Below, piece after piece: positions 22,020 through 41,863 of a stretch of 42,601 nucleotides of DNA. Origin of the DNA: a virus (lineage: Duplodnaviria > Caudoviricetes). The stretch lies in IMG/VR virus record IMGVR_UViG_3300038393_001228, positions 1-42,601 of that record. The stretch is one strand, 5' to 3'. A model generated the notes under the pieces. The model saw nothing but the letters and a program-made list of their open reading frames with translations, was not told the origin of the DNA and did not search any database. The translations under genes were made by a program, and so were the position numbers. Positions within the stretch are counted from its first letter, which is position 1. Every line of letters starts with the position of its first letter.

Positions 22020-22931
22020 ATGAACATCAACATCACCGACCCGATCTTCCACGACGAAGCAAAAGCCGTAGAGCATATCGCCGACTCCAGGTGGCCGGAC
22101 GGCGTTGACTGTCCGCATTGTGGCAGCGGCCGCGTCATCATGATGGGCGGCAAGACACAGGCCGGTTACTGGCTTTGCAACGACTGCCGCGACAAGTTCA
22201 CCGTTCGCACCGGAACGGTGATGGAGCGCAGCCACGTTCCCCTGCATAAATGGCTCCTCGCAACGCACCTCATGGCGGCGTCAAAGAAGGGCATGAGCGC
22301 GAAGCAGATCGAGCGCATGCTTGGCGTGACCTACAAAACCGCTTGGTTCCTCATGCACCGCATCCGTGAGGCGATGGACGAAGCGAACGGCACCGGCCCG
22401 CTCGGCGGCCCCGGCAAGGTCGTTGAGAGCGATGAAGCCTTCATCGGCGGCAAGCGCAATCGTCGCCTTGGCGGCAAAACCGCTCCGAAGAAAAAGGTTG
22501 TCTCCCTGATCGAGCGCGACGGTCGCGCCCGCTCATTCCACGTTGCCAATATCCACGCGAACAACGTCCGCGCTGCGCTGGTCACGAACATCGATCGCCG
22601 CTCGACCCTCATGACGGACGATGCCCGCTTCTATTGGGATATCGGCAAAGAGTTCGCGAAGCATGGCCGCGTTCTCCACGCTGGCCGTGAGTTCAGCCGT
22701 GGCGACGGCCACCATGCCAACACCGCCGAGAACTTCTTTTCCATCCTCAAGCGTGGCGTGATCGGCACCTACCACCATTGGTCGGCCGCCCACATTCACC
22801 GCTATCTCGCCGAGTTCGATCTGCGCTACTCGACCAAGGACAAGAGCGACGGCGAGCGCGCCGCAACCATCCTCAAGGGGATGGAAGGCCGCCGCCTTAC
22901 CTATCGGCGGATTGGTCCGCTCGCCGCCTAA
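22020..22931 (+). CDS. IS1595-family (ISXO2-like) DDE transposase
   Basis: N-terminal zinc ribbon CPHC...CNDC, FTVRTGT, YKTAWFLMHRIREAM, VESDE, LMTDD, NTAENFFSILKRG and YLAEFDLRY. Confidence 0.95.
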   Translation: MNINITDPIFHDEAKAVEHIADSRWPDGVDCPHCGSGRVIMMGGKTQAGYWLCNDCRDKFTVRTGTVMERSHVPLHKWLLATHLMAASKKGMSAKQIERMLGVTYKTAWFLMHRIREAMDEANGTGPLGGPGKVVESDEAFIGGKRNRRLGGKTAPKKKVVSLIERDGRARSFHVANIHANNVRAALVTNIDRRSTLMTDDARFYWDIGKEFAKHGRVLHAGREFSRGDGHHANTAENFFSILKRGVIGTYHHWSAAHIHRYLAEFDLRYSTKDKSDGERAATILKGMEGRRLTYRRIGPLAA

Positions 22932-30672: not shown

Positions 30673-31587
30673 GTGGCGAACGAGCAATATCCGATCAAGA
30701 ATCGCTGGTCCGGCGAAGTTATGTTCACCGCCGAGATCACTTGTTCTCCGGATGCTCTGCCAAGCGTGAAACTAGGGCTGGCCGTAAAGGCTGCTCTTAA
30801 AGCGCGTGCCGACCTCGCGGGTGCCAACCTCGCGGGTGCCGACCTCGCGGATGCCAACCTCGCGGGTGCCGACCTCGCGGGTGCCTACCTCGCGCGTGCC
30901 AACCTCGCGGGTGCCTACCTCGCGCGTGCCAACCTCGCGCGTGCCAACCTCGCGGGTGCCGACCTCGCGGGTGCCTACCTCGCGCGTGCCAACCTCGCGG
31001 GTGCCTACCTCGCGGGTGCCTACCTCGCGGGTGCCGACCTCGCGGGTGCCAACCTCGCGGGTGCCAACCTCGCGGATGCCAACCTCGCGGGTGCCGACCT
31101 CGCGGGTGCCTACCTCGCGCGTGCCTACCTCGCGGGTGCCGACCTCGCGGGTGCCAACCTCGCGGGTGCCAACCTCGCGGATGCCAAAGGCTTCATTCCC
31201 GAGCGGACAACGCATTTGGCGTCTCTCAAATTCATGCCCGTCGTTCACGCCTTCAAGGTCGTGAATGAGCGCGGCGAAGGCCACATCAACGGCGGTCTGA
31301 AATACAAGATCGGCAAGCGCGTTTCGGTCAAGAATGCCGACACCGACCCGAACGAAATGTGCTCGGCTGGCATTCATGTGGCCGATCTGCCTTGGTGCCT
31401 TAAAGAATGGCGCGAAGGCTACCGCATCCTTCTGATCGAGCACACGAATGCGGACATTGCCTGCATTCCGTTGGGCACTGACGGCAAATACCGCCTGCAT
31501 GGCTGCACGCCGGTCAAGGATATCACCGACAAGCTGCGTGAATGCGGAGCGCTCCCCGCGCTTCAGGTTGAGAAGGCCGCGGCATGA
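30673..31587 (+). CDS. Pentapeptide-repeat protein with C-terminal globular domain
   Basis: 25 A(D/N/Y)LA(G/R/D) repeats. C-terminal CSAGIH...DGKYR domain. Confidence 0.9.
   Translation: MANEQYPIKNRWSGEVMFTAEITCSPDALPSVKLGLAVKAALKARADLAGANLAGADLADANLAGADLAGAYLARANLAGAYLARANLARANLAGADLAGAYLARANLAGAYLAGAYLAGADLAGANLAGANLADANLAGADLAGAYLARAYLAGADLAGANLAGANLADAKGFIPERTTHLASLKFMPVVHAFKVVNERGEGHINGGLKYKIGKRVSVKNADTDPNEMCSAGIHVADLPWCLKEWREGYRILLIEHTNADIACIPLGTDGKYRLHGCTPVKDITDKLRECGALPALQVEKAAA
30808..31182 (+). repeat. 15-bp tandem repeat x25, GCC(G/A/T)ACCTCGCG(GGT/CGT/GAT)
   Basis: Read directly from the sequence. Confidence 0.95.
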
Positions 31588-31816: not shown

Positions 31817-32416
31817 ATGGCAACGGTTGCAGAAATTCTTGAGCGCTGGGACTCGAACGAGGGAAAACCCTACAAGGGCTCGTTGATCGACTTCAAGGCA
31901 TACGAGGCCGACAAGTCCAACATCGGTTGCATGTGTGCGCAGGGCCAAGTCCTGCACCTGATCGGCGGGTGGTCGCCGACCAAGCTGCGCGGCACGGCGC
32001 AAGAAGAGGCTGACCGCGAAACCGCCAAGCTGCTCAACATTTCCAGAGCACATTCCATCCTCTTGCGCAGCATAAACGACAAGGCGGACGGCGCGCCTTC
32101 GATTGTCTTGACGCACCCTGAAAAGGTGCTCGGCGATCAGGCGAAAACCGTCCTCGCGTTCTGGCTTCATCTTGACCGGATGAAGGCCGGGGATTGGAAG
32201 AAGAGGGTGGCCGCCGCTTGGGCCGCCGCTGGGGCCGCCGCTAGGGACGCCGCTAGGGACGCCGCTAGGAACGCCGCTGGATATGCCTGTTCCGAAATCC
32301 AGGGCGCCCGCCTCATGCGCGAACGCGGACAGCCGTTCTTCTTCCTGCCGATGGTTGGTTTCTCCGATCCCGAAAGCATTCCGGCGCTTCCGGCTGACTA
32401 CGGGGTCGCCCAATGA
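31817..32416 (+). CDS. Hypothetical protein with Ala-rich 12-bp repeat (AAWA/AARD)
   Basis: GAGGA RBS, CMCAQG motif and a tandem GCCGCTNGGGNC run at about 32212-32280. Confidence 0.7.
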   Translation: MATVAEILERWDSNEGKPYKGSLIDFKAYEADKSNIGCMCAQGQVLHLIGGWSPTKLRGTAQEEADRETAKLLNISRAHSILLRSINDKADGAPSIVLTHPEKVLGDQAKTVLAFWLHLDRMKAGDWKKRVAAAWAAAGAAARDAARDAARNAAGYACSEIQGARLMRERGQPFFFLPMVGFSDPESIPALPADYGVAQ

Positions 32417-32710: not shown

Positions 32711-32917
32711 ATGAGCGGGCGCTGCCTTCATTGCGGTGAGCCGAACTGCCGCATCTGCGAATACCTCGAAGAGCCGGACGGCACGATGTGCCAAAGGTGC
32801 AACGACCAGCCTGCAATCGAAGACGAAACGCTGTGCATCTACTGCGATAGGTTGCTGAGTAAACAGGTTGAGAGGGAGCTTAGGTTTACTGTTAAGCAGC
32901 AGCGGAGGGTCGCATGA
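32711..32917 (+). CDS. Small Cys-rich (zinc-finger-like) protein
   Basis: CLHC, CRIC, CQRC and CIYC. ATGA coupling at both ends. Confidence 0.55.
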   Translation: MSGRCLHCGEPNCRICEYLEEPDGTMCQRCNDQPAIEDETLCIYCDRLLSKQVERELRFTVKQQRRVA

Positions 32918-33426
32918 CTGGGCGTTCCCCTTCGGGTCGGGCTGGTCGTCCTACGGACCAAGCCCCTACGGGTCTTGGCGATACCGCGACCATCCCTAAC
33001 GCACCGCGTTGGCGGCTGTGGGCCGTTATTCCATTCATCGCTGTCGGGTGTGGTGTGATGCTCTTTGTCAGCGTCCTCCGGGAACTGCTCGGTGGAGTTC
33101 ACCACGCGCTCTTGGCTATGCTCGAATGGCTTGCCTCCTTGGCGGGGCTTCCGAGGACGCAGCCGCGCGCCAACGATGAGGTTCCGAGCATCAAGGCGGA
33201 CGTTGCTGAGGATGCCTTTCGCGAGGCACTGAGGCGCTACCCCGAGGCCGAGCGCGGGCTTGTCTTTCTCTATGGCGCAAGCGGCCTTGGCCAGCGGATG
33301 CCGACCGAAAAGCAATTGGCATGGGCGCGCGAGAAAGCGTCAGCGATCGAAGCCCGTAGGGCCGGAACCGCGAAGGCGGGTCCGGTTCACGAGAGCGCGA
33401 CCCGTCAGGGGGACGCCCGTGACTGA
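32914..33426 (+). CDS. Hypothetical membrane protein whose N- and C-termini are encoded by repeat copies 1 and 2
   Basis: One TM segment. The ORF spans both inverted repeats. Confidence 0.45.
   Translation: MTGRSPSGRAGRPTDQAPTGLGDTATIPNAPRWRLWAVIPFIAVGCGVMLFVSVLRELLGGVHHALLAMLEWLASLAGLPRTQPRANDEVPSIKADVAEDAFREALRRYPEAERGLVFLYGASGLGQRMPTEKQLAWAREKASAIEARRAGTAKAGPVHESATRQGDARD
32920..33002 (-). repeat. Structured repeat copy 1
   Basis: Reverse complement GCGTTAGGGATGG...CCAAGAC-CCGTAGGG-GCTTGG...AGCCCGACCCGAAGGGGAACGCCC. Confidence 0.8.
33337..33418 (+). repeat. Structured repeat copy 2
   Basis: GCGTCAGCGATCGAAGCCCGTAGGG-CCGGAAC...GTCCGG-TTCACGAGAGCGCGACCCGTCAGGGGGACGCCC. Confidence 0.85.
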
Positions 33427-33465
33427 AACTAGTCCAGTAGGCAACGGAACCGATCGGGTGGCGAT

Positions 33466-33801
33466 GTGAGCGTTTACGTCGATGGCGAGCGCAACGAATT
33501 CGGTCGGATGGTGATGTGCCACATGTGGGCCGACACCCTTGCTGAGCTCCACCAGATGGCTGATGCGATCGGCATGAAGCGGGAGTGGTTTCAGCCACTA
33601 TCGTTTCCTCATTACGACGTGAGCCTGTCTCGACGCGCTGTCGCGGTTGAGCTTGGGGCTGTCCAGGTCGGACGACGCGAAGGCAGCGAAATCAGAAAGC
33701 GCATCTTTGCGCGGGGTTTCAGCGATGCCGAGCTTGCGGAGATACGCGCCGCCATCCCCGCTTACGACGCCAAGCGCAAACGGAGGCAGCATAATGCGTA
33801 A
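33466..33801 (+). CDS. DUF4031 family protein
   Basis: VYVD...MCHMWADTLAELH..A..IG.KREWFQ...PHYDV...R..AV..GA. Confidence 0.85.
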   Translation: MSVYVDGERNEFGRMVMCHMWADTLAELHQMADAIGMKREWFQPLSFPHYDVSLSRRAVAVELGAVQVGRREGSEIRKRIFARGFSDAELAEIRAAIPAYDAKRKRRQHNA

Positions 33802-33869
33802 CCCTTTCCAATATGATTTGGGGGAGAGTGTGAGGGGCAGTGATGTAGCTGACTTCTGCGACCTCATTT

Positions 33870-33956
33870 GGGCGAACGCTTCGCGCCGCGCGGTCGCGGC
33901 TTCGCCGTCTAGCCACTCTTCGGTGTCTAGCCCCTCCGGGCTTCCATCGCTTTCGC
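33870..33956 (-). repeat. Structured repeat copy 3
   Basis: Reverse complement GCGAAAGCGATGGAAGCCCGGAGGGG-CTAGAC...GCTAG...GCGCGGCGCGAAGCGTTCGCCC. Confidence 0.8.
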
Positions 33957-34005
33957 AATCCACCAGGGAAGGGGCGGAACCTAACAAGACCGCCCCTCGC
34001 AATTC

Positions 34006-34779
34006 GTGACCACGCAAGTGCAAACTGTCGAGAAGATCATCGAGGATGGTGGTGTTCAAACGCTCAACGGCGGCATCCTCAATGTGATCGCCCGCGCCGC
34101 TGCCGACCCGAAGACCGACGTGGACAAGCTCGAGCGCCTTCTGGCGATGCAAGAGCGTGTCATGGAGCGCGAGGCTAAGCTGGCGTATGAAACCGCCATG
34201 CGGGCCGCGCAGGAGGAAATCCGGCCCGTCCTTAAAAACCGCAAGAACCCGGAAACCAAGTCCACCTACGCGGATCTAGAGCAGATCAGCGACTTGGCCG
34301 ACCCGATCATCCACAGTCACGGCTTTTCCCTATCTTATGGGACGGCTGATTGCCCACTCGCAAATCACTACCGCGTAACATGCGAAGTGTCGCACTCTGG
34401 CGGGTATAGCAAGGATCACCAGGCCGACGTGCCGATTGATAATGTCGGGCCAAAAGGGACGCAGAATAAGACCAACACGCACGGGTTCGGCTCCGCGCTC
34501 AGCTACGGTCGCCGCTACCTCAAGGTTCTCATTTTCGACATCAAGATGACCGATGATGACGGGCGCGCTGCGGGGCGTGGCGGGCCAGTCAACAAGCAGC
34601 AACTGGAGGTTCTGAACGGCCTCTGCGATGCGGTCGGCGCCGACAAGATCGCCTTCTGCAAATACCTCAAGATCGCCTCTCTGAGCGAATTAGCCGCGGC
34701 CGATTACAACGACGCGGTTCACGTTCTGAAGCAGAAGAATCCGGACGCCGCACGTAACTATCTGACGGCGGGCAAGTGA
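34006..34779 (+). CDS. erf: ERF-family single-strand annealing protein
   Basis: DKLERLLAMQER, YADLEQI, HGFSLSY and GSALSYGRRY. Confidence 0.85.
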   Translation: MTTQVQTVEKIIEDGGVQTLNGGILNVIARAAADPKTDVDKLERLLAMQERVMEREAKLAYETAMRAAQEEIRPVLKNRKNPETKSTYADLEQISDLADPIIHSHGFSLSYGTADCPLANHYRVTCEVSHSGGYSKDHQADVPIDNVGPKGTQNKTNTHGFGSALSYGRRYLKVLIFDIKMTDDDGRAAGRGGPVNKQQLEVLNGLCDAVGADKIAFCKYLKIASLSELAAADYNDAVHVLKQKNPDAARNYLTAGK

Positions 34780-35429
34780 TGGAGATATTTACTTGCGAAC
34801 AGGGGTCGGATGAGTGGGTCCAGGCCCGCCTCGGCATCCCGACAGCCTCCGAGTTCCACACCATCATGGCGAAGGGCCGTGACGGCGGGGACAGCAAGAC
34901 GCGACGCACATACATGCTCAAGCTGGTTGGGGAAATCCTGACCGGCGAGCAGATGGAAGGTTACTCCAACCATCACATGGAGCGTGGCAAGGTGATGGAG
35001 GATGAGGCCCGCAGCCTCTACGCCTTCATGAAAGACGTTGAGCCGCAGTGCGTAGGCTTCATCCGCAACGGCAACAAGGGATGCAGCCCGGACTCACTGG
35101 TCGGAACGGACGGCGCGGCCGAAATCAAAACCAAGCTTCCACACCTCCAGGTTGATTGCCTGTTGGGCGGTCGCGTTCCACCTGAACACGTCGCCCAGTG
35201 CCAAGGCGTCCTGTGGGTAGCCGAGCGCGAGTGGATCGACTTCGTTTCATATTGGCCGAAGCTCCCGCTCCACGTCCACCGCTCACACCGCGACGAAGAG
35301 TATATCGCGAAGCTCGCGAGCGCCGTGGATCAGTTCAACGAGGAGCTGGCGGAAATGGTGGAGCGGGTCCGCGCCCACGGCGGCGACAACCTACGCAATG
35401 AACTCAAGGCATCTCTGGAGGCAGCATAA
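34776..35429 (+). CDS. YqaJ/lambda-exonuclease family protein
   Basis: [27 protein letters not shown] and QCQGVLWV. Confidence 0.9.
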
Positions 35430-35854
35430 TGGCATCCGTCAACAAGGTTATTCTCGTCGGCAATCTCGGGGCCGATCCCGAAGCCCGCTCGCTCAACAAT
35501 GGTGGCGAGGTCGTCAACATGCGGGTCGCCACCAGCGAGTCGTGGAAAGACGGCGACGGCAACCGCAAGGAGCGCAGCGAGTGGCACAACGTGGTCATCT
35601 TCAACGAGAACTTGGGCAAGGTAGCGAAGAGCTATCTCCGCAAGGGCTCGAAGGTTTACCTCGAAGGCCAGCTGCAGACGCGCAAGTGGACCGACCAATC
35701 CGGCAACGACAAATACACCACTGAGGTCGTCCTACAGCGGTTCCGGGGCGAGCTTGTGCTGCTGGATAGCAAGGGCGGTGGTGAGGCTCGCGGAACGTCC
35801 GAAGACCGGGGCGTGTTCGCGGGAACGACGGCGGATGACGAAATTCCGTTTTGA
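35429..35854 (+). CDS. ssb: Single-stranded DNA-binding protein
   Basis: [16 protein letters not shown]...EWHNV...EGQLQTRKW with a DDEIPF tail. Confidence 0.97.
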
Positions 35855-36237
35855 TGTTCTCACCCCGCGCCATAAAGCCGCGTAGGCAAAACTCGCACAG
35901 AGCTGACGAGTTCAAGCGCTGCCCAGCCTTCCTCCAATGGTTGCGCGGTCGGCCTTGCTACCTCGCGATTCATGTCCCCGGACACCAGTGCTGGGGCAAG
36001 GTGCGGGCCTGCCACTTCGATCCGTGGGGTGACAAGGGCGCTGGCACGAAGGTCTCGGATAACGCCTGTATGCCCATGTGTGACGGGGCGCATGATGAGC
36101 AAACGACGCGCTTAGGCTGGCCCAAGTTCCAGGCGAAATACAAGTTCGACGGGCGCGATGTCGTCAGCCGCTATTGGCTGGAGTGGCTTCACAACACGCC
36201 AATGGGCGCAAGCTGGAGGGCCAAGCAAGATGCATAA
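35851..36237 (+). CDS. HNHc-like/DUF968-type putative nuclease
   Basis: [10 protein letters not shown]...ACH...GTKVSD...PMC..AHDEQ. Confidence 0.65.
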
Positions 36238-36610
36238 GGTCATCCTCACCAACCCGTTTAGTCGCGAGCGGTTCAAGCGGATCGTTGACCAGGCGCCCGA
36301 TGGCTACGTGGCCGAGGTGCGCGAGCCCAAGCGGACGCTCGAACAGAACGACCTCATGTGGAGCCTGCTCACCGACATCAGCGTGGCCTGTCCGCTAGGT
36401 CGCCGGCACACCCCAGATGACTGGAAGGCGATCGCCATGAACGCCTGCGGTTGGGAGTGCCAGTTCGTGGAGGGCCTAGATGGTCGCCCGTTCCCCAAGG
36501 GGTTCCGCAGCTCGCGCCTGACCAAATCTCAGATGTCGCAACTGATCGAGTTCCTGTTCGCGTTCGGCGCCGAGCATGGCGTGAAATGGACGCACGAGGA
36601 GGCAGCATGA
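36230..36610 (+). CDS. ninB: NinB/Orf recombination protein
   Basis: KRTLEQNDLMWSLLTDIS...DWK...RSSRLTKSQMSQLIEFLFAFGAEHGVKW. Confidence 0.9.
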   Translation: MHKVILTNPFSRERFKRIVDQAPDGYVAEVREPKRTLEQNDLMWSLLTDISVACPLGRRHTPDDWKAIAMNACGWECQFVEGLDGRPFPKGFRSSRLTKSQMSQLIEFLFAFGAEHGVKWTHEEAA

Positions 36611-36748
36611 AACGCAACACCGCACTCAAACTGGTCGCAAGCCGTCCTCCTGAGCGGATCTACGGCAGTCAGAGGTTTATCGGTCTTACACGAAATGTAG
36701 GATTGGAAAGCCCGAGTAAGTTTGTTCCGACTTTGAAGGGGCCGCTCG

Positions 36749-37018
36749 ATGTCATCATCTAAGGGCGTTCCGGCTTCGCCGGCACCGCTTCAGCCGGCGA
36801 CAGGCTTCATCAACGCGATTGCCGACCGCTTTCAGGAAATGCATGTCCCGTCGCTCAGTCGCGACAAGGCGTTGCTGCTCGCATTGGTCGCGCTTGCGGA
36901 CGCCGAGACCGACCTGGGGCCGATAAATCATCCAGACTTCGATTGGTCGCTCGACGGCGCGCGGGAGATTGCCGACGAAAACATAGAGCATTGGGAGAGC
37001 CCAAATGCCGCTGACTAA
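36749..37018 (+). CDS. Hypothetical protein
   Basis: Acidic C-terminus DFDWSLDGAREIADENIEHWE. N-terminus reads through repeat copy 4. Confidence 0.55.
   Translation: MSSSKGVPASPAPLQPATGFINAIADRFQEMHVPSLSRDKALLLALVALADAETDLGPINHPDFDWSLDGAREIADENIEHWESPNAAD
36763..36816 (-). repeat. Structured repeat copy 4 (short, degenerate)
   Basis: Reverse complement GCGTTGATGAAGCC...AGCGGTGCCGGCGAAGCCGGAACGCCC. Confidence 0.55.
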
Positions 37019-37211
37019 GCTGACACCGCGTAACCAGCTTCGCGCCTTCTACGAAGACATCGATAGGATGAAGTCGGGCGAGCAGATGCTGCATTCGATT
37101 GGGCAGCACGTAGAACTGCTCATCAAGCGGATGGACGCGCTCGAAGCGTCAGTGATCGAAGCGGCGACAGCCGGCGAGACAACGGAGGGCAAAGATGGCG
37201 ACACGCGCTGA
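37005..37211 (+). CDS. Hypothetical protein
   Basis: GGGAG RBS. C-terminus reads into repeat copy 5. Confidence 0.5.
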   Translation: MPLTKLTPRNQLRAFYEDIDRMKSGEQMLHSIGQHVELLIKRMDALEASVIEAATAGETTEGKDGDTR

Positions 37212-37565
37212 AACAGTAGCGCGCAAGCGGCGGTGGTATCTTGCCAATCGCGAGATCCATCTTGCGCGCACTCGCGAGCGAGATGCCATCCGACGCTTTC
37301 TCACTGATTATTTGACCACTCACCACTGTGTCGATTGCGGAGAAGCTGACCCAATCGTCCTCGACTTCGATCATGTGGGCGAAAAGTCATTCGGCCTGTC
37401 CACCGCCACAACGAAACTGATGCGACTTGAACGGGTGCGAGCTGAGATCGCCAAGTGCGAAGTTCGCTGTGCCAACTGCCATCGCCGCAAGACCTACGCG
37501 GCTCAGGGTCACCGCAGCCGCTCGACCGAAGGACGACAGCCCGACCGCCGTAGGCGGGGACGCCC
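37146..37565 (+). repeat. Structured repeat copy 5, split by an HNH gene
   Basis: 5' half GCGTCAGTGATCGAAGCGGCGACAGCCGGCGAGAC (37146-37180). 3' half GCTCGACCGAAGGACGACAGCCCGACCGCCGTAGGCGGGGACGCCC (37520-37565). Confidence 0.8.
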
Positions 37566-37941
37566 AAACCCAGCTCAATCACCCACCCAAGGCAACCCCA
37601 TGACACACATAACTGACGAGCAGATCGAAGAAATGCGCGCCAAGTTCGAGCGGCGTTTCATGACGAGCGCAATCGACGAGTATTGCCCTGAAGAGTTCGG
37701 TGAACTGTTGGACGAAATCCAACGACTGCGGCAATCCGCCTCACCTGAAGGCGGGGTTAGCTCGGCGCTGCGGGAGGCGGTCATTGCTGATGTGATCGCC
37801 AAGTATGCGGGCGCATTCTACATCGACTGTGGCGATGCCGAGCCGGGAATGCTTGAGCGCGCAGCCAAGGCATTAGCGCATCAGGTCGAAGCCGCCATCA
37901 CACAAGGAGCGCCCAGCAACTCAGATCGGAGTGGGGAATGA
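37195..37941 (+). CDS. HNH endonuclease (about 37195-37510), in frame with a downstream ORF that has its own ATG at 37600
   Basis: CVDCGEADPIVLDFDH...EIAKCEVRCANCHRRKT zinc-HNH motif. No stop occurs before MTHITDEQIEEM. Confidence 0.8.
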   Translation: MATRAETVARKRRWYLANREIHLARTRERDAIRRFLTDYLTTHHCVDCGEADPIVLDFDHVGEKSFGLSTATTKLMRLERVRAEIAKCEVRCANCHRRKTYAAQGHRSRSTEGRQPDRRRRGRPNPAQSPTQGNPMTHITDEQIEEMRAKFERRFMTSAIDEYCPEEFGELLDEIQRLRQSASPEGGVSSALREAVIADVIAKYAGAFYIDCGDAEPGMLERAAKALAHQVEAAITQGAPSNSDRSGE

Positions 37942-38228
37942 GTAGGGCATTCACACCTGGTCCGTGGCGGGTCAGCCCACTCGGCAACTGCGATATTGAG
38001 AGCGGCGACGGCTCTCTGGAAATCGCGACCACGCATCAAGACATTTTGAACGGCGGCTATCGAGACCCGTCCACAGCGCAGGCGGATGCCCACCTGATAG
38101 CAGCGGCTCCTGAGCTTTACGCCAGCCTGTCCGATGCGGTCGAGCTTCTTGAGCAAGCAGGTTTCTCGACTGTCGAACATCGCGCCGCCTTGCTCAAAGC
38201 TAACCCCCATCAGGGAGATGATCGGTGA
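37938..38228 (+). CDS. Conserved small phage protein (TPGPW...A.LIAAAPEL)
   Basis: FTPGPW and ADAHLIAAAPELY motifs. Confidence 0.75.
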   Translation: MSRAFTPGPWRVSPLGNCDIESGDGSLEIATTHQDILNGGYRDPSTAQADAHLIAAAPELYASLSDAVELLEQAGFSTVEHRAALLKANPHQGDDR

Positions 38229-38662
38229 AATATCCGCGTATCGAGCCATGCGCTTTTTGCAGAGCGGTGTGCAAGACCGACGAACTCGGCTTTGACCACC
38301 CCCCTGTCGATAACTGCGTCCTGTCAGATGCGAGCTTTGCATGGGCAAGCGCAGATGCCTGGAACGCTCGCACCAAAGACCCGCGACCAGTATCGGGTGA
38401 GAAGCTGAATATCTGCGAACGGTTGTTGGCGATGCGCGTGTGCGAGGGCCATAGACTTAACCTTCGCGTCAATCCCGACGGCCCTGACGCTGTTGCCTTC
38501 ATCGGGAGCAGGGAAGCGCTGATCGAACGCCTGACTGAGGCGCTGGCCTACTACGCAAACGACGAACACTACGACTGCGGCGATGTTCCCGGCCACGTCT
38601 ACGTAATTGACGATCACGGGCGGTTCGCCCGCGCCGCCCTCCAAGCCGTGAAGGAGGCATAG
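38225..38662 (+). CDS. Lar-like zinc-finger hypothetical protein
   Basis: PCAFC...C...AWNART N-terminal pattern. EALAYYA...ARAAL C-terminus. Confidence 0.55.
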   Translation: MKYPRIEPCAFCRAVCKTDELGFDHPPVDNCVLSDASFAWASADAWNARTKDPRPVSGEKLNICERLLAMRVCEGHRLNLRVNPDGPDAVAFIGSREALIERLTEALAYYANDEHYDCGDVPGHVYVIDDHGRFARAALQAVKEA

Positions 38663-38677
38663 ATCATGGCTGATTTT

Positions 38678-38754
38678 GGGCGTACATTTCCCGCTCTCAC
38701 CCTTCGGGCTGAGCCGCTTCGCGTCTCATCGCTGCGCGTTTCGATCGGGGCCGC
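38678..38754 (-). repeat. Structured repeat copy 6
   Basis: Reverse complement GCGGCCCCGATCGAAACGCGCAGCGA-TGAGAC-GCGAAGCG-GCTCA-GCCCGAAGGGTGAGAGCGGGAAATGTACGCCC. Confidence 0.75.
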
Positions 38755-38931
38755 GTGAAGTCAGCGCGCGTCTCGACGGCGGAAATCGCCCATGCGAAGG
38801 CCGCAGCCGAGAAGGCTGGATTGCGCCTGGCTGCGTTCGAGAAGCATCCTGACGGAACCGTGAAGCTGGAATTTGGCGAGGAGCCAGCTAACGACTGGCG
38901 GGCGGGAAGTCCGCTATACAGCGTCAAATGA
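38755..38931 (+). CDS. Putative excisionase-position protein
   Basis: 58 aa, VKSARVSTAEIAHAKAAAEKAGL...HPDGTV...NDW. ATGA overlap with the integrase. Confidence 0.6.
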   Translation: MKSARVSTAEIAHAKAAAEKAGLRLAAFEKHPDGTVKLEFGEEPANDWRAGSPLYSVK

Positions 38932-39959
38932 GCAAGTTGCCAAAATACGTCCGCCAGAAGAAGGCAAAGGGCCGGACCTACTACTACTTCGATCTGGGTA
39001 AAGCTGACGATGGCCGGCGGCTGCTCGCGCCCCTCCCCGATATCAAGGACTCTCGATTCGGCGATTGCCTGTCCCGCGCGAAGGCCACCAGAACGAACCG
39101 CAAGAACCGCAAGGACATCCTCACGCTGGACGGCCTGATCCGCAGCTATGAGCGATCACCCGAGTTTCGCGAGAAGGCCCCCGCGACGAAGAAGAATTAC
39201 TCGATCTATCTGGCGAAGGCCAATGCCATGATCCGCTCTGGGTCAGGCGAAAGCCCCCCGGCGAGACAGATCGAGCGCACAGACGTTTTGGCATTACGCG
39301 ACAAACTGGCCGATTCGACCGGCGCTGCCAATCAGACGGTTCGGGCTTTGGGCGCGCTCTACAAATGGGCGAGCGACCGCCACGGGCTGAAGGACAACCC
39401 AGCACACGGGATTAAATTGTTCAAGGCCATCCCGCACGAGCCTTGGCCGGAACCGCTATTGGAAGAGGCTATCCTGGACCCGCAAGTGGGAATGCCGGTC
39501 GCCCTCCTCTACTTCACCGGCCAACGAATCGACGATGCGATCAAGATGAAATGGTCGGACATCAAAGGCGACACGATGGCCGTGTTCAACCAGAAGAAGG
39601 ACCGTCATGTCCAAGTGCCGATCCTGCCCGAACTGGCCGACATGCTCGCCACTCAAGAGAAGACGGCGATTACCATCCTGACCAACGCCAACGGGCGCCC
39701 GTGGACGCAGGGAGGGTTGCGGCTGAAGCTCCAGGCATGGGCGAAGGATCGCGGCCACAAGGTTGTTCCGCATGGCCTCCGCAAAAACGCGGTGATCTCA
39801 TTGCTGGAGGCGGGCTGCACTCACGCCGAAGTGTCGGGAATTACCGACCAGTCGCCGCAGATGGTCGAATATTACGGGCGGCGGGTTAATAAATTGAGGC
39901 TCGGAAGAGCCGCAATCGTCAAATTTGATGCCTCCAGACGAGCCCGGAACGAAGCATGA
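38928..39959 (+). CDS. int: Tyrosine integrase
   Basis: FTGQRIDDA, K, HGLRKNA, ITDQS...YY catalytic motifs and an N-terminal arm-binding YYYF. Confidence 0.95.
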   Translation: MSKLPKYVRQKKAKGRTYYYFDLGKADDGRRLLAPLPDIKDSRFGDCLSRAKATRTNRKNRKDILTLDGLIRSYERSPEFREKAPATKKNYSIYLAKANAMIRSGSGESPPARQIERTDVLALRDKLADSTGAANQTVRALGALYKWASDRHGLKDNPAHGIKLFKAIPHEPWPEPLLEEAILDPQVGMPVALLYFTGQRIDDAIKMKWSDIKGDTMAVFNQKKDRHVQVPILPELADMLATQEKTAITILTNANGRPWTQGGLRLKLQAWAKDRGHKVVPHGLRKNAVISLLEAGCTHAEVSGITDQSPQMVEYYGRRVNKLRLGRAAIVKFDASRRARNEA

Positions 39960-40115
39960 AAATGCAAACCAATGTGAAAACCGCTTGTTTTCCTATCGCA
40001 GATGCGATAATGGGAACTTGTCAATTTCGCGGAGATTTCAGCTAGTGTTCTAGCCCCGTTCTGTGAAAACCTGCCGGATCAATGCGGAGTGCGTCATGGA
40101 GAATGTGAAAACCGA
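39960..40115. other. Putative attP with arm-type repeats
   Basis: TGTGAAAACC x3 (39973, 40062, 40104) flank the inverted repeat TATCGCA-GA-TGCGATA in an AT-richer gap after int. Confidence 0.6.
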
Positions 40116-40632
40116 GAGACGTATCCAGCGCAGCTGGTTTAGCGCCAGTCCGTATGCCACAACGCCTGGGTTTCTTTTGAGTGGCGAGAGTCAGCGCCGT
40201 ATCGCGCCGCTAGGCCAAGGCGAGCGCGAACTGGGATGGATGGTGCTGCCCCCGTTCCAGCGTCCGCCTGTGTGGACCGAGGCCCAGAAGATTCGGTTTG
40301 TCGAAAGCTGCTGGCTTGGCTTGCCGGTAGGGGTGTTCATCATCAACCGCCCTAACAACATGCGGAGCCCCTTCTTTAATTGGCTGCTCGACGGTCAGCA
40401 GCGGGTGACGGCTCTCTACGAGTATATGGATGATGCGTTTCCCGTGCTTGGCTACCGCTATTCGGAGCTTGGCGATCCCGATTATCGCCAATGGCAGATG
40501 ACCACGCACTTCGGTCATCTGGAAACCCACTTGGAGGACGAGGAAGCGCTGCGCGATGTTTACGACCGCCTCGCTTACGGCGGCACTCCGCACGAGCCCA
40601 AAGACAGCCCTGCGCGCCCCTTAGGAGGATGA
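40063..40632 (+). CDS. Stand-alone DUF262 (GmrSD N-terminal/ParB-like) protein; start uncertain
   Basis: LPPFQRPPVW, F.ES...GLP.G and LLDGQQRVTAL. Confidence 0.85.
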   Translation: MKTCRINAECVMENVKTERRIQRSWFSASPYATTPGFLLSGESQRRIAPLGQGERELGWMVLPPFQRPPVWTEAQKIRFVESCWLGLPVGVFIINRPNNMRSPFFNWLLDGQQRVTALYEYMDDAFPVLGYRYSELGDPDYRQWQMTTHFGHLETHLEDEEALRDVYDRLAYGGTPHEPKDSPARPLGG

Positions 40633-40649
40633 GTTATAGAGGAGGATAA

Positions 40650-40856
40650 GTGATGATCTCGTGGCTCGATCAGGAGTTTATGGATGGTTACCGGGATGGA
40701 CGCGATCGAAACGCACCGGAACCTTCGGACAACCGCTCAGCGGCCTATCGCCACTCGTTTGGTGTTGGGCGGGCGGAGTTAGCCGGTTGCCCTATTCCCG
40801 CCGCGCTGTCCCGCGATCGAGCAGCGGAAATTGTTCGACAAGAGGCGGCGGCATGA
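40650..40856 (+). CDS. Small hypothetical protein
   Basis: GGAGG RBS. DGYRDG...NRSAAYRHSF..G. Confidence 0.6.
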   Translation: MMISWLDQEFMDGYRDGRDRNAPEPSDNRSAAYRHSFGVGRAELAGCPIPAALSRDRAAEIVRQEAAA

Positions 40857-41029
40857 CCGAGCGCTATCGCCTGAAGCAGGATGGGACGGTCGTGGCGGGC
40901 GTTGAGGGGCCGACTGCGCTGGATGAAATCATCCATTACACTCGTGTCTATGGTCAGGATGGCCCTGTGACCATCGAGCGCCACGAGAACGGCAAATGGC
41001 GCGAATATGCGCGGAGGCACCCAGCATGA
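40853..41029 (+). CDS. Small hypothetical protein
   Basis: MTERYRLKQDG...EIIHY...YGQDGPV. ATGA coupling. Confidence 0.55.
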   Translation: MTERYRLKQDGTVVAGVEGPTALDEIIHYTRVYGQDGPVTIERHENGKWREYARRHPA

Positions 41030-41055
41030 CCGCACAAACCAGATCGGAGTAACCC

Positions 41056-41313
41056 ATGACCTTACGAGATGAGATCATTGCCGCGATTCGCGCATCTACT
41101 TGGCCAACGAACGACGATCAAGTTGAGGGCATCGAAGAGGCGGCAGACGCTGTTCTCGCCCTGCCTGCGATTGCAGGGGCGCTTGAACTGGCTCGTTACC
41201 ATGCCGCCATCGGGACCAATCCGCTGCGCTCGGCCAGCGAGATCACAGCAAAGACTCTCGGCCACAGCATCAAGGTTCGGGATGAGTCTGTTTCTACCCA
41301 GGGGGAGGAGTGA
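41056..41313 (+). CDS. Small hypothetical protein
   Basis: GGAG RBS. EAADAVLAL motif. Confidence 0.55.
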   Translation: MTLRDEIIAAIRASTWPTNDDQVEGIEEAADAVLALPAIAGALELARYHAAIGTNPLRSASEITAKTLGHSIKVRDESVSTQGEE

Positions 41314-41329
41314 GATGGCGGGATATTTT

Positions 41330-41395
41330 GGACGTAATCCGGCTATCGTGAACTCAAAGCCTGCGGCTTTTCGCCCTTCGGGCTTCGATCCGGCG
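41330..41395 (-). repeat. Structured repeat copy 7
   Basis: Reverse complement CGCCGGATCGAAGCCCGAAGGGCG...GTTCACGATAGCCGGATTACGTCC. Confidence 0.75.
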
Positions 41396-41408
41396 TAAAG
41401 GAAGAAAC

Positions 41409-41783
41409 ATGGCAAACCTAAAGACCGAACTCGAAGAGGCTGAGACGTTCTACGGCGAACAGATAGAGGCGATGATTGTCGGCAAGCTGGAGGAATACCC
41501 TTATCCTGACGCGCAGCCTGACGAGAATGTTATTCTCAGTCGCGAGGCCGGGCTGGCCAAGGTCGATCGCGAATATGACGACGGCTTTGGCGGAGCGGAT
41601 TGCCACTCGCTCTATGCATGGACAGCATCGCGCATATTCTTTGTCTTTGAATATGACGGTGCCACGTCGCTGCATTGGTTGCCGAGACACCCGACCGCCT
41701 TAGAGGTTCACCTAAACGGCAATGCCCAGAGTTGGGATGAGATTGCGAAAATCATTGCGGCGCGCAAAGTGGCAACCGCTTGA
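41409..41783 (+). CDS. Hypothetical protein bracketed by repeat copies 7 and 8
   Basis: AGGAAG RBS. YDDGFGG...AWT...EYDG...LPRHP. Confidence 0.75.
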   Translation: MANLKTELEEAETFYGEQIEAMIVGKLEEYPYPDAQPDENVILSREAGLAKVDREYDDGFGGADCHSLYAWTASRIFFVFEYDGATSLHWLPRHPTALEVHLNGNAQSWDEIAKIIAARKVATA

Positions 41784-41785
41784 CC

Positions 41786-41863
41786 GCGATAGCGATACCC
41801 ACCGATAGGCCGAGACGCACAGCGGCTCGGTTCATGGGTAGCGCGGGCCGTCAGGCATCGCCC
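41786..41863 (+). repeat. Structured repeat copy 8
   Basis: GCGATAGCGATACCCACCGATAGG-CCGAGAC-GCACAGCG-GCTCGG-TTCATGGGTAGCGCGGGCCGTCAGGCATCGCCC. Confidence 0.85.

Follow-up and report, generated by a model that had tools for sequence, protein, structure and literature searches.

The 42.6-kb virus record IMGVR_UViG_3300038393_001228, a temperate tailed phage whose entire sequence of 42,601 nucleotides (nt) was analyzed here and is referred to as the window, carries a family of repeats of about 80 nt. A single DNA strand of the repeated element is predicted to adopt a fold that combines a three-way junction with a perfect four-way junction. Homologues occur on conjugative plasmids, integrative and conjugative elements (ICEs), single-stranded DNA (ssDNA) phages and other temperate phages, and genes of the temperate phages are likely to have been captured by joining at the exact 5' end of the element. 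As an explanation that we hold tentatively, the element may be a host-read signal that starts complementary-strand synthesis on ssDNA and doubles as a gene-capture boundary. The comparative case for structure and strand is strong and the evidence for precise gene joining in phages is good; the biochemical role is a prediction from sequence.

Eight copies and a conserved fold

The copies in the window are given below with scores from a covariance model, R1, which was constructed from 85 homologues on other viral contigs, includes no window sequence, and was run over the window with filters off.

32920..33002 (-): copy 1, full element, upstream bracket of cassette 1; 62.6 bits, E 1e-12
33337..33418 (+): copy 2, full canonical element, downstream bracket of cassette 1; 80.2 bits, E 9e-17
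33870..33956 (-): copy 3, solitary, just upstream of the Erf-exonuclease-SSB genes; 60.3 bits
36763..36816 (-): copy 4, upstream bracket of cassette 2; 7.8 bits, E 9.7, not significant alone
37146..37180 (+): copy 5, 5' half, with closing stem, G.A stem, left arm and start of the central arm; 23.9 bits, E 0.0016
37520..37565 (+): copy 5, 3' half, with central arm, right arm, G.A stem, side hairpin and CGCCC; read against the family structure
38678..38754 (-): copy 6, directly upstream of a small open reading frame (ORF) and the integrase gene; 60.1 bits
41330..41396 (-): copy 7, short-based variant, upstream bracket of cassette 3; 32.1 bits, E 2e-5
41786..41863 (+): copy 8, downstream bracket of cassette 3; 48.6 bits

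R1 recovers seven of the eight copies at E<=0.002, copy 5 by way of its 5' half, and its strongest match outside the copies in the whole 42.6 kb has an E of only 0.14. An earlier note on this DNA, written from the letters alone, had described an eight-member family of structured repeats confined to the accessory arm. Direct reading confirms eight stretches with the positions, strands, closing stems and central stems that it gave, the confinement holds, and the copies are recovered by a model trained on other viral sequences; membership is established for seven, copy 4 falling short of significance. Copy 4 retains only the closing stem GCGTT/AACGC and one hairpin and is probably a deletion relic. 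Copy 5 is interrupted by an HNH gene, with two pairs broken. The basal side hairpin is missing from copies 6 and 7, copy 6 keeping the four-way top, and Watson-Crick pairs replace the tandem G.A pairs in copies 1 and 8. Plain repeat finding misses the family except for one inverted pair. Single-sequence folding is weak for some copies (DNA z-scores of -0.2 to -4.4), and the case for structure therefore rests on covariation.

A pattern derived from the copies matched at least 130 stretches in IMG/VR (about 240 estimated) and yielded 134 unique sequences, about 3 of which are expected by chance. The 5' part of the consensus is GCG-n1n2-AG-S-GAT-X-GAA-G, followed by left, central and right arms; the 3' part is C-GA-Y-AGC-S'-CG, the side hairpin, and n2'n1'-CGCCC. 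At positions that the pattern left free, pairing was found at n1 in 129 of the 134 sequences (45 expected), at n2 in 127 (36 expected), at S in 129 (66 expected) and between X and Y in 127 (50 expected). The top splits into three arms without any unpaired base, giving the perfect four-way junction, in 113 of the 134. For R1 and for counts of pair changes, 85 typical sequences were picked by hand and aligned; in these rows, which are related and do not represent independent events, changes on both sides occur at 15 of 21 pairs and three or four pair types are seen at several columns, whereas slid controls drop to 28-46% paired. The earlier proposal of a selected multi-stem structure with preserved pairing is thus upheld by covariation across the 134 homologues. 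Position -1 is a pyrimidine in 111 of the unique matches. In phage cassettes, copies folded on the coding strand mostly have C at position S (25 of 31 paired copies), and those folded on the template strand mostly have G (18 of 33).

Several properties of the fold distinguish between DNA and RNA. Over 13 stem columns, 1043 pairs are Watson-Crick, 40 are A.G, 8 are G.T and 6 are A.C. RNA helices usually use wobble pairs; neither strand of the element does so, which points to DNA. The commonest loops are cGAAg, cGCAg, gGAAc, cGTAg and cGGAg, together with the two-base loops cTTg and tTCa. We take these to be extra-stable DNA mini-hairpins; GNA mini-hairpins resist nucleases. In 95 of 250 cGNAg loops the outer pair is incompatible with cUNCGg on the opposite strand, and the loops, which had been assigned to GNRA and UUCG RNA types, are better read as three-base cGNAg DNA loops. 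The suggested likeness to the Flavo-1 RNA motif was not borne out: RF01705, for which a score above 42 bits was required, gave 0 matches at E<=10. Matches to Rfam families, including c4, STAXI, DUF1874 and TwoAYGGAY, lay far below the gathering scores in the window and in 20 homologous loci, so that no family reaches its cut-off. No RNA dataset was present among the listed sequencing runs that hold the region. The choice between RNA and ssDNA left by the earlier note is therefore narrowed by the loops, the strand use and the near absence of G.T pairs, and action of the fold as ssDNA is favored.

Distribution and strand of the fold

A stricter pattern matched at least 124 stretches in GTDB genomes (about 460 estimated), mostly from Alpha-, Beta- and Gammaproteobacteria, with some Bacteroidales and Planctomycetes records among the matches listed. 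ParB-like, ArdC, DUF932 and SSB genes were used as markers of leading regions, and 49 of 77 examined loci had one. In 48 of the 49, many of which are related ICEs, the fold lies on the template strand of the nearest marker gene; the sole exception is a prophage. Five host genomes, in each of which 150 candidates were scored, hold 1-14 copies in same-strand, ICE-like clusters. One variant of the element matches 4403 plasmids in PLSDB, and the Bacteroidales variant gave no plasmid match. On the F plasmid the element is on the minus strand beside both Frpo repeats, about 470 nt upstream of ssb and of ygeA. R388 has two identical matches (E 0.002), and the leading region of an IncN-like plasmid has four copies. 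Two of the candidate promoter regions of PMC11541004 include all or part of the element, without comment there. The accessible part of that paper reports that leading genes are transcribed from the transferred strand, so that the folded strand would be the entering strand.

In Frpo* 4 and 5 (PMC11541004 supplement 7) and at 20079-20187 of contig L363, the place of the element next to Frpo-like hairpins is taken by another structured module (CGCCATCAGACCCTAGCC...); R388 carries an apparent hybrid of the two.

In microviruses the element is on the capsid-gene strand in every match (contigs L066, L356, L357 and L405; 7 of 72 related genomes). It occupies 75 of the 103 nt between VP1 and VP2 in the gokushovirus L356. 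The corresponding slot is occupied in phiX174 by the PriA site, according to the accessible part of bioRxiv 10.64898/2026.07.25.740675, and in G4 by the complementary-strand origin. Throughout the clade of 72 genomes a single non-coding slot holds the element, its variants, or unrelated hairpin modules, and the variants keep the G.A stem with a single top hairpin and have lost the four-way junction. The same slot also contains other GNA-loop modules ending in GTCA(A/C)C (L492 at 2705, L494 at 6946, L525 at 1629 and L529 at 2739), which are followed by a conserved GTAGTAC...GTACTAC hairpin and form a second family. A contig with a rolling-circle Rep (L016) has the element on the Rep strand; small rolling-circle plasmids were not found among the best 40 matches.

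The fold lies on the non-transcript strand in plasmids and ICEs and on the transcript strand in microviruses; temperate phages, where the coding strand was estimated from AT skew, use the two strands about equally. Because the relation to transcripts differs between plasmids or ICEs and microviruses, the folded strand appears to follow single-strandedness and not transcription. Eight other phage genomes, which carry 6-14 copies, each have a single arc free of elements that makes up 55-80% of the genome; these arcs contain 48 of the 55 ORFs of at least 400 aa, so that confinement to accessory regions is general.

Cassettes and junctions in temperate phages

Neighboring copies within 3-kb loci tend to face one another: 43 of 65 pairs are arranged minus-then-plus, with 5' ends opposed over 150-800 nt. 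In 37 of 61 unique cassettes a single ORF spans both elements, its start codon lying shortly before the first and its stop codon shortly after the second. The core length is 1 mod 3 in 34 of these 37, with two scaffold types; avoidance of stop codons was rejected as the cause of this common register, as open frames predict 16 of 37. Homology among the cores was detected for only two pairs, and other cargo, as recognized by motifs, presumably includes HNH, dCMP-deaminase-like, Fic-like and ATP-grasp-like proteins. The window provides the following examples.

32914..33426 (+): cassette 1 ORF, 170 aa; start 6 nt before copy 1, stop 5 nt after copy 2
37195..37519 (+): HNH endonuclease domain in the loop of the copy 5 central arm; PHROG 2255, E 2e-23
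41409..41783 (+): cassette 3 cargo gene, 124 aa, with its own start and stop, between copies 7 and 8

The cassette 1 ORF is open across the whole of copy 1, the 334-nt cargo and copy 2. The N-terminal peptide encoded by copy 1 heads 13 of 14 other protein matches, mostly on unrelated cores, and no relatives of the core itself were found among metagenome contigs. The element explains why a false 'domain' keeps appearing at the two ends of many hypothetical phage proteins. Cassette 3 cargo has only a weak PHROG match and one relative in viral contigs, and copies 4 and 5 form a decayed pair (cassette 2).

The edges of the element were located by comparing near-identical copies. Of 82 such pairs, which overlap in membership, 13 differ on the 5' side only and 0 on the 3' side only; both flanks differ in 67 and neither in 2, and identity drops at position -1. 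Identical copies with both flanks different are found in L374/L375 and L090/L122. Between a cassette core in genome G019 and an element-free gene of G027, identity is 91% and stops at both element edges. For a deaminase-like cargo, the joints correspond to the first 2-4 and last few codons of its 22 closest free relatives. The element-free allele L344 agrees through GCGAAAT and then diverges. At the joint, 4 or 5 of the 5 bases of GCGnn match in three of the four closest element-free alleles, a micro-match that is only suggestive given its rarity in distant alleles (see below). The 3' continuation of the gene is not restored after the element in comparison with the element-free alleles, no clean empty/filled pair was found, and no target-site duplications were seen at the element. 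Of the roles proposed in the earlier note, a part in recombination gains support from these precise 5' junctions.

In the close relative G042, the counterpart of copy 3 has the same element and 3' flank with a different 5' flank; the sites of copies 1 and 6 hold other element types; and at copy 8 the flanks are near-identical while the arms differ by compensated changes. Identity with the window resumes at the CGCCC of copy 5. At the site of copies 4 and 5, the HNH-type gene of G042 (L437 13790-14405) is a different one, and its end coincides with an GCATCGCCC remnant resembling the element. Soil runs contain variants that skip 32878-33786 and 36730-37575. Among the 15 joints listed, of 30 from four soil runs, no strand-change joint indicative of cassette inversion was present.

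The frame of the HNH in copy 5 (ORF 37195-37941) stays open across the 3' half of the element and into the gene that follows. An HNH of 57% identity occupies the same loop in G019, where the element is intact. None of 80 HNH-relative loci has a model match, and of 34 further loci only G019 has both halves. HNH was rejected as the element's own enzyme on this basis and, since the other 113 loci do not show both halves, is probably a passenger or homing invader of a tolerant loop.

Elsewhere in the window, head and tail genes occupy the minus strand at 3-21 kb and replication genes lie at 25-30 kb; the plus-strand arm at 34-40 kb encodes Erf, exonuclease, SSB, HNH, NinB and a tyrosine integrase. 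Near homologues of the element are found in alphaproteobacterial prophages, such as those of Novosphingobium, and the sequencing runs containing most of the region are soil and rhizosphere metagenomes. An IS1595-family (ISXO2-like) transposase gene at 22020-22931 (+) is inserted between the packaging and replication modules. A gene at 30673-31587 (+) has a pentapeptide-type tract of 15-nt tandem repeats, shorter in G042, and 12-nt tandem repeats lie within an ORF at 32209-32280, as in two other viral loci. A gene for a GmrSD N-terminal (DUF262-like) domain, at 40063-40632 (+), is directly 3' of the integrase gene.

Possible roles and comparison with known systems

The strand rule and the microvirus slot together make complementary-strand priming the best single reading of the element. 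The fold would form as DNA once its strand is exposed, whether during entry, during replication, or upon resection by the phage exonuclease, Erf and SSB. A conserved host protein would then bind the G.A-rich stem, a PriA-type primosome or a primase being the first candidates. No window protein is common to more than four of the seven element-rich phages, and the reader is therefore probably a host protein; a phage-encoded enzyme partner was considered and rejected, none being common to the seven. Each strand has a copy 3' of the cargo and would thereby carry its own signal. A nascent strand that has just copied the element could close its own basal stem, detach at the element edge and anneal to a different gene by way of some five bases (GCGnn). 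Two events of this kind, with selection for an open frame, would generate a new cassette. For temperate phages this amounts to a possible route of integrase-free capture, which we put forward with somewhat more reserve than the priming role: the opposite-strand pair would act as a cloning site at which host machinery joins 5' ends through a five-base match, trims genes at start and stop codons and fuses them in frame, the same fold serving as a previously unrecognized entry signal common to conjugative plasmids, ICEs and ssDNA phages across several bacterial phyla.

A number of observations weigh against priming and capture as formulated here. Early conversion downstream of the element copies in F is abolished by rifampicin, as given in the accessible part of bioRxiv 10.64898/2026.01.09.698686, which argues against strong PriA- or DnaG-type (rifampicin-resistant) priming there. 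The F element begins about 90 nt past the end of the published ssiD sequence, and by inspection the Frpo1-3 sequences of ColIb-P9 lack it (both from PMC11541004 supplement 7), so that known priming activity is independent of the element. The model does not match phiX174, G4, ColE1 or F 30-54 kb, nor 65 of the 72 microviruses tested. It is not obvious why a phage with double-stranded DNA would require eight priming sites, all in the accessory arm. As the 5' flank is conserved in ICEs and microviruses, capture behavior would be specific to temperate phages, and homologous exchange within elements accounts for part of the junction pattern. Only 1 of 9 more distant element-free alleles has the GCGnn match.

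The alternative that survives best, although we regard it as unlikely, is a nick-and-join site or non-autonomous mini-element moved as ssDNA by an HUH enzyme in trans (of the IS200/IS605 TnpA, RAYT, relaxase or Rep type). The cut would be at the 5' base of the fold, the basal stem would provide guide pairing with a GCGnn target, and the strand bias would reflect where ssDNA is available and not a benefit. Such movement would account for sharp ends without target duplication, for identical copies between different flanks, for the pyrimidine at -1 and for the departure of L344 after GCGAAAT; REP doublets, moreover, have an inverted-pair layout like that of the element pairs. It is harder to reconcile with the missing empty/filled pair and with a 3' flank that is not the continuation of the element-free gene. 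No transposase accompanies the element, and no HUH transposase is encoded in the window. Because the five host genomes have only 1-14 copies, in ICE-like clusters, the REP/MITE-like mobile element suggested by the earlier note, whose interpretation is partly supported overall, persists as a rival only. Fixed slots with alternative modules, in microviruses and in plasmid repeats, suggest instead a function under selection.

Less likely again is a protective or decoy fold that binds a host junction or ssDNA protein (HU, RuvA, RecG, SSB or RecA regulators) or blocks 3'-5' exonucleases, so that strands are spared degradation or SOS sensing, with capture arising incidentally from template switching at a stable fold. 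The DNA of microviruses is circular and has no ends to protect, and the short-topped microvirus variants keep the G.A stem while losing the four-way junction, the very feature that, with its very stable DNA loops, recommends this explanation. The location at the 3' side of the cargo on each strand and the neighboring anti-defense genes ardC, ssb and DUF932 also agree with it. The F data in the accessible part of bioRxiv 10.64898/2026.01.09.698686 cut both ways: the rifampicin result is consistent with protection, but loci flanking a copy convert 14 s apart after ssp2 deletion, indicating that there is no strong roadblock.

An attC-like folded site, at which a tyrosine recombinase (the phage integrase or host Xer) excises, inserts or inverts cassettes, is improbable. 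Strand-specific folded DNA of low sequence identity, cassette-like cargo and a precise junction would fit such a site, as would the tyrosine integrase of the window, but that integrase has relatives in only two of the seven element-rich phages, the sites face each other ('- +' in 43 of 65) where direct repeats would be expected, the fold is branched unlike an attC hairpin, the soil-run joints examined contain no strand change, and single copies in microviruses are left without a reason. Least probable is a structured RNA of an early transcript (small RNA, leader, stabilizer or ribozyme): RNA folding energies are favorable on both strands, the reverse complements of many loops read UUCG or UACG and an HNH in a peripheral loop resembles intron-borne homing nucleases, but G.U-type pairs are almost absent on either strand, Rfam gives no match, and the folded strand has no constant relation to the transcript.

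One 80-nt sequence links two open questions, how incoming ssDNA is converted and protected and how phages gain their many small accessory genes. Characterized folded-DNA signals are mostly simple hairpins, and a natural four-way DNA junction that is supported by covariation and capped by GNA and two-base loops would represent a new class of structure. Since the F plasmid carries the element, its deletion, reversal and transplantation are possible in laboratory E. coli at once. The element is widespread and apparently undescribed so far: no description of the fold or cassettes was found in the literature, although older subscription papers and the supplement of PMC5737381 might contain one, and 10-mer searches of the supplements of PMC2864571, PMC11541004 and PMC9849209, in which gapped alignments can hide 10-mers, did not reveal it.

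Among known systems, the single-strand initiation (ssi) signals (the n'-pas primosome assembly sites of phiX174, ColE1 and F, which PriA recognizes, and G4-type primase origins) are likewise folded ssDNA on the strand to be copied, have GNA-type loops in common with the element, and include sites in the same position after the capsid gene as the L356 copy. A stretch of 10-15 nt in the element resembles the pas motif, which we take to be GTGAGCG/GNGGAAGC and which is seen in ColE1 and F. The element differs from ssi signals in pairing and topology, in the failure of the model to match phiX174, G4, ColE1 or F 30-54 kb, and in its use as multiple inverted pairs in double-stranded phages. With the single-stranded promoters Frpo, ssiD and ssp1 of F and ColIb-P9 it shares the leading-region repeat and the strand, in thousands of F-like plasmids; however, it lies about 90 nt outside ssiD, is absent from the ColIb-P9 Frpo, has no -35 or -10 boxes, and occurs alone in microviruses and temperate phages. 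The R388 and IncN-like copies probably lie within the IncW long direct repeats and IncN CUP repeats, which are described as promoter or regulatory units. The element is a sub-module of repeats of this type and can also be found in their absence.

Integron attC sites and the DUF1874 motif (in the accessible part of PMC5737381) are also strand-specific folded DNA beside variable small genes, with structure kept and sequence free. The element departs from these in its inverted orientation, its branched fold (attC being a simple hairpin with R/L boxes), and the lack of an integron integrase and of an Rfam match, the window integrase being a phage integrase and not IntI; its cargo, too, is often fused in frame without its own start and stop. 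REP/REPIN-RAYT sequences, IS200/IS605 ends and SsnA-associated repeats resemble it as short folded ssDNA with inverted doublets, sharp ends and no target duplication, whereas the element has low copy number, resides on mobile elements, has no adjacent HUH or GIY-YIG gene and forms a larger branched fold. Only a general multi-stem look is shared with Flavo-1 (RF01705), which a table in the accessible part of PMC2864571 lists from Bacteroidetes. Standing outside each of these named families, the element is like an ssi signal by position and like attC sites and REP doublets by layout.

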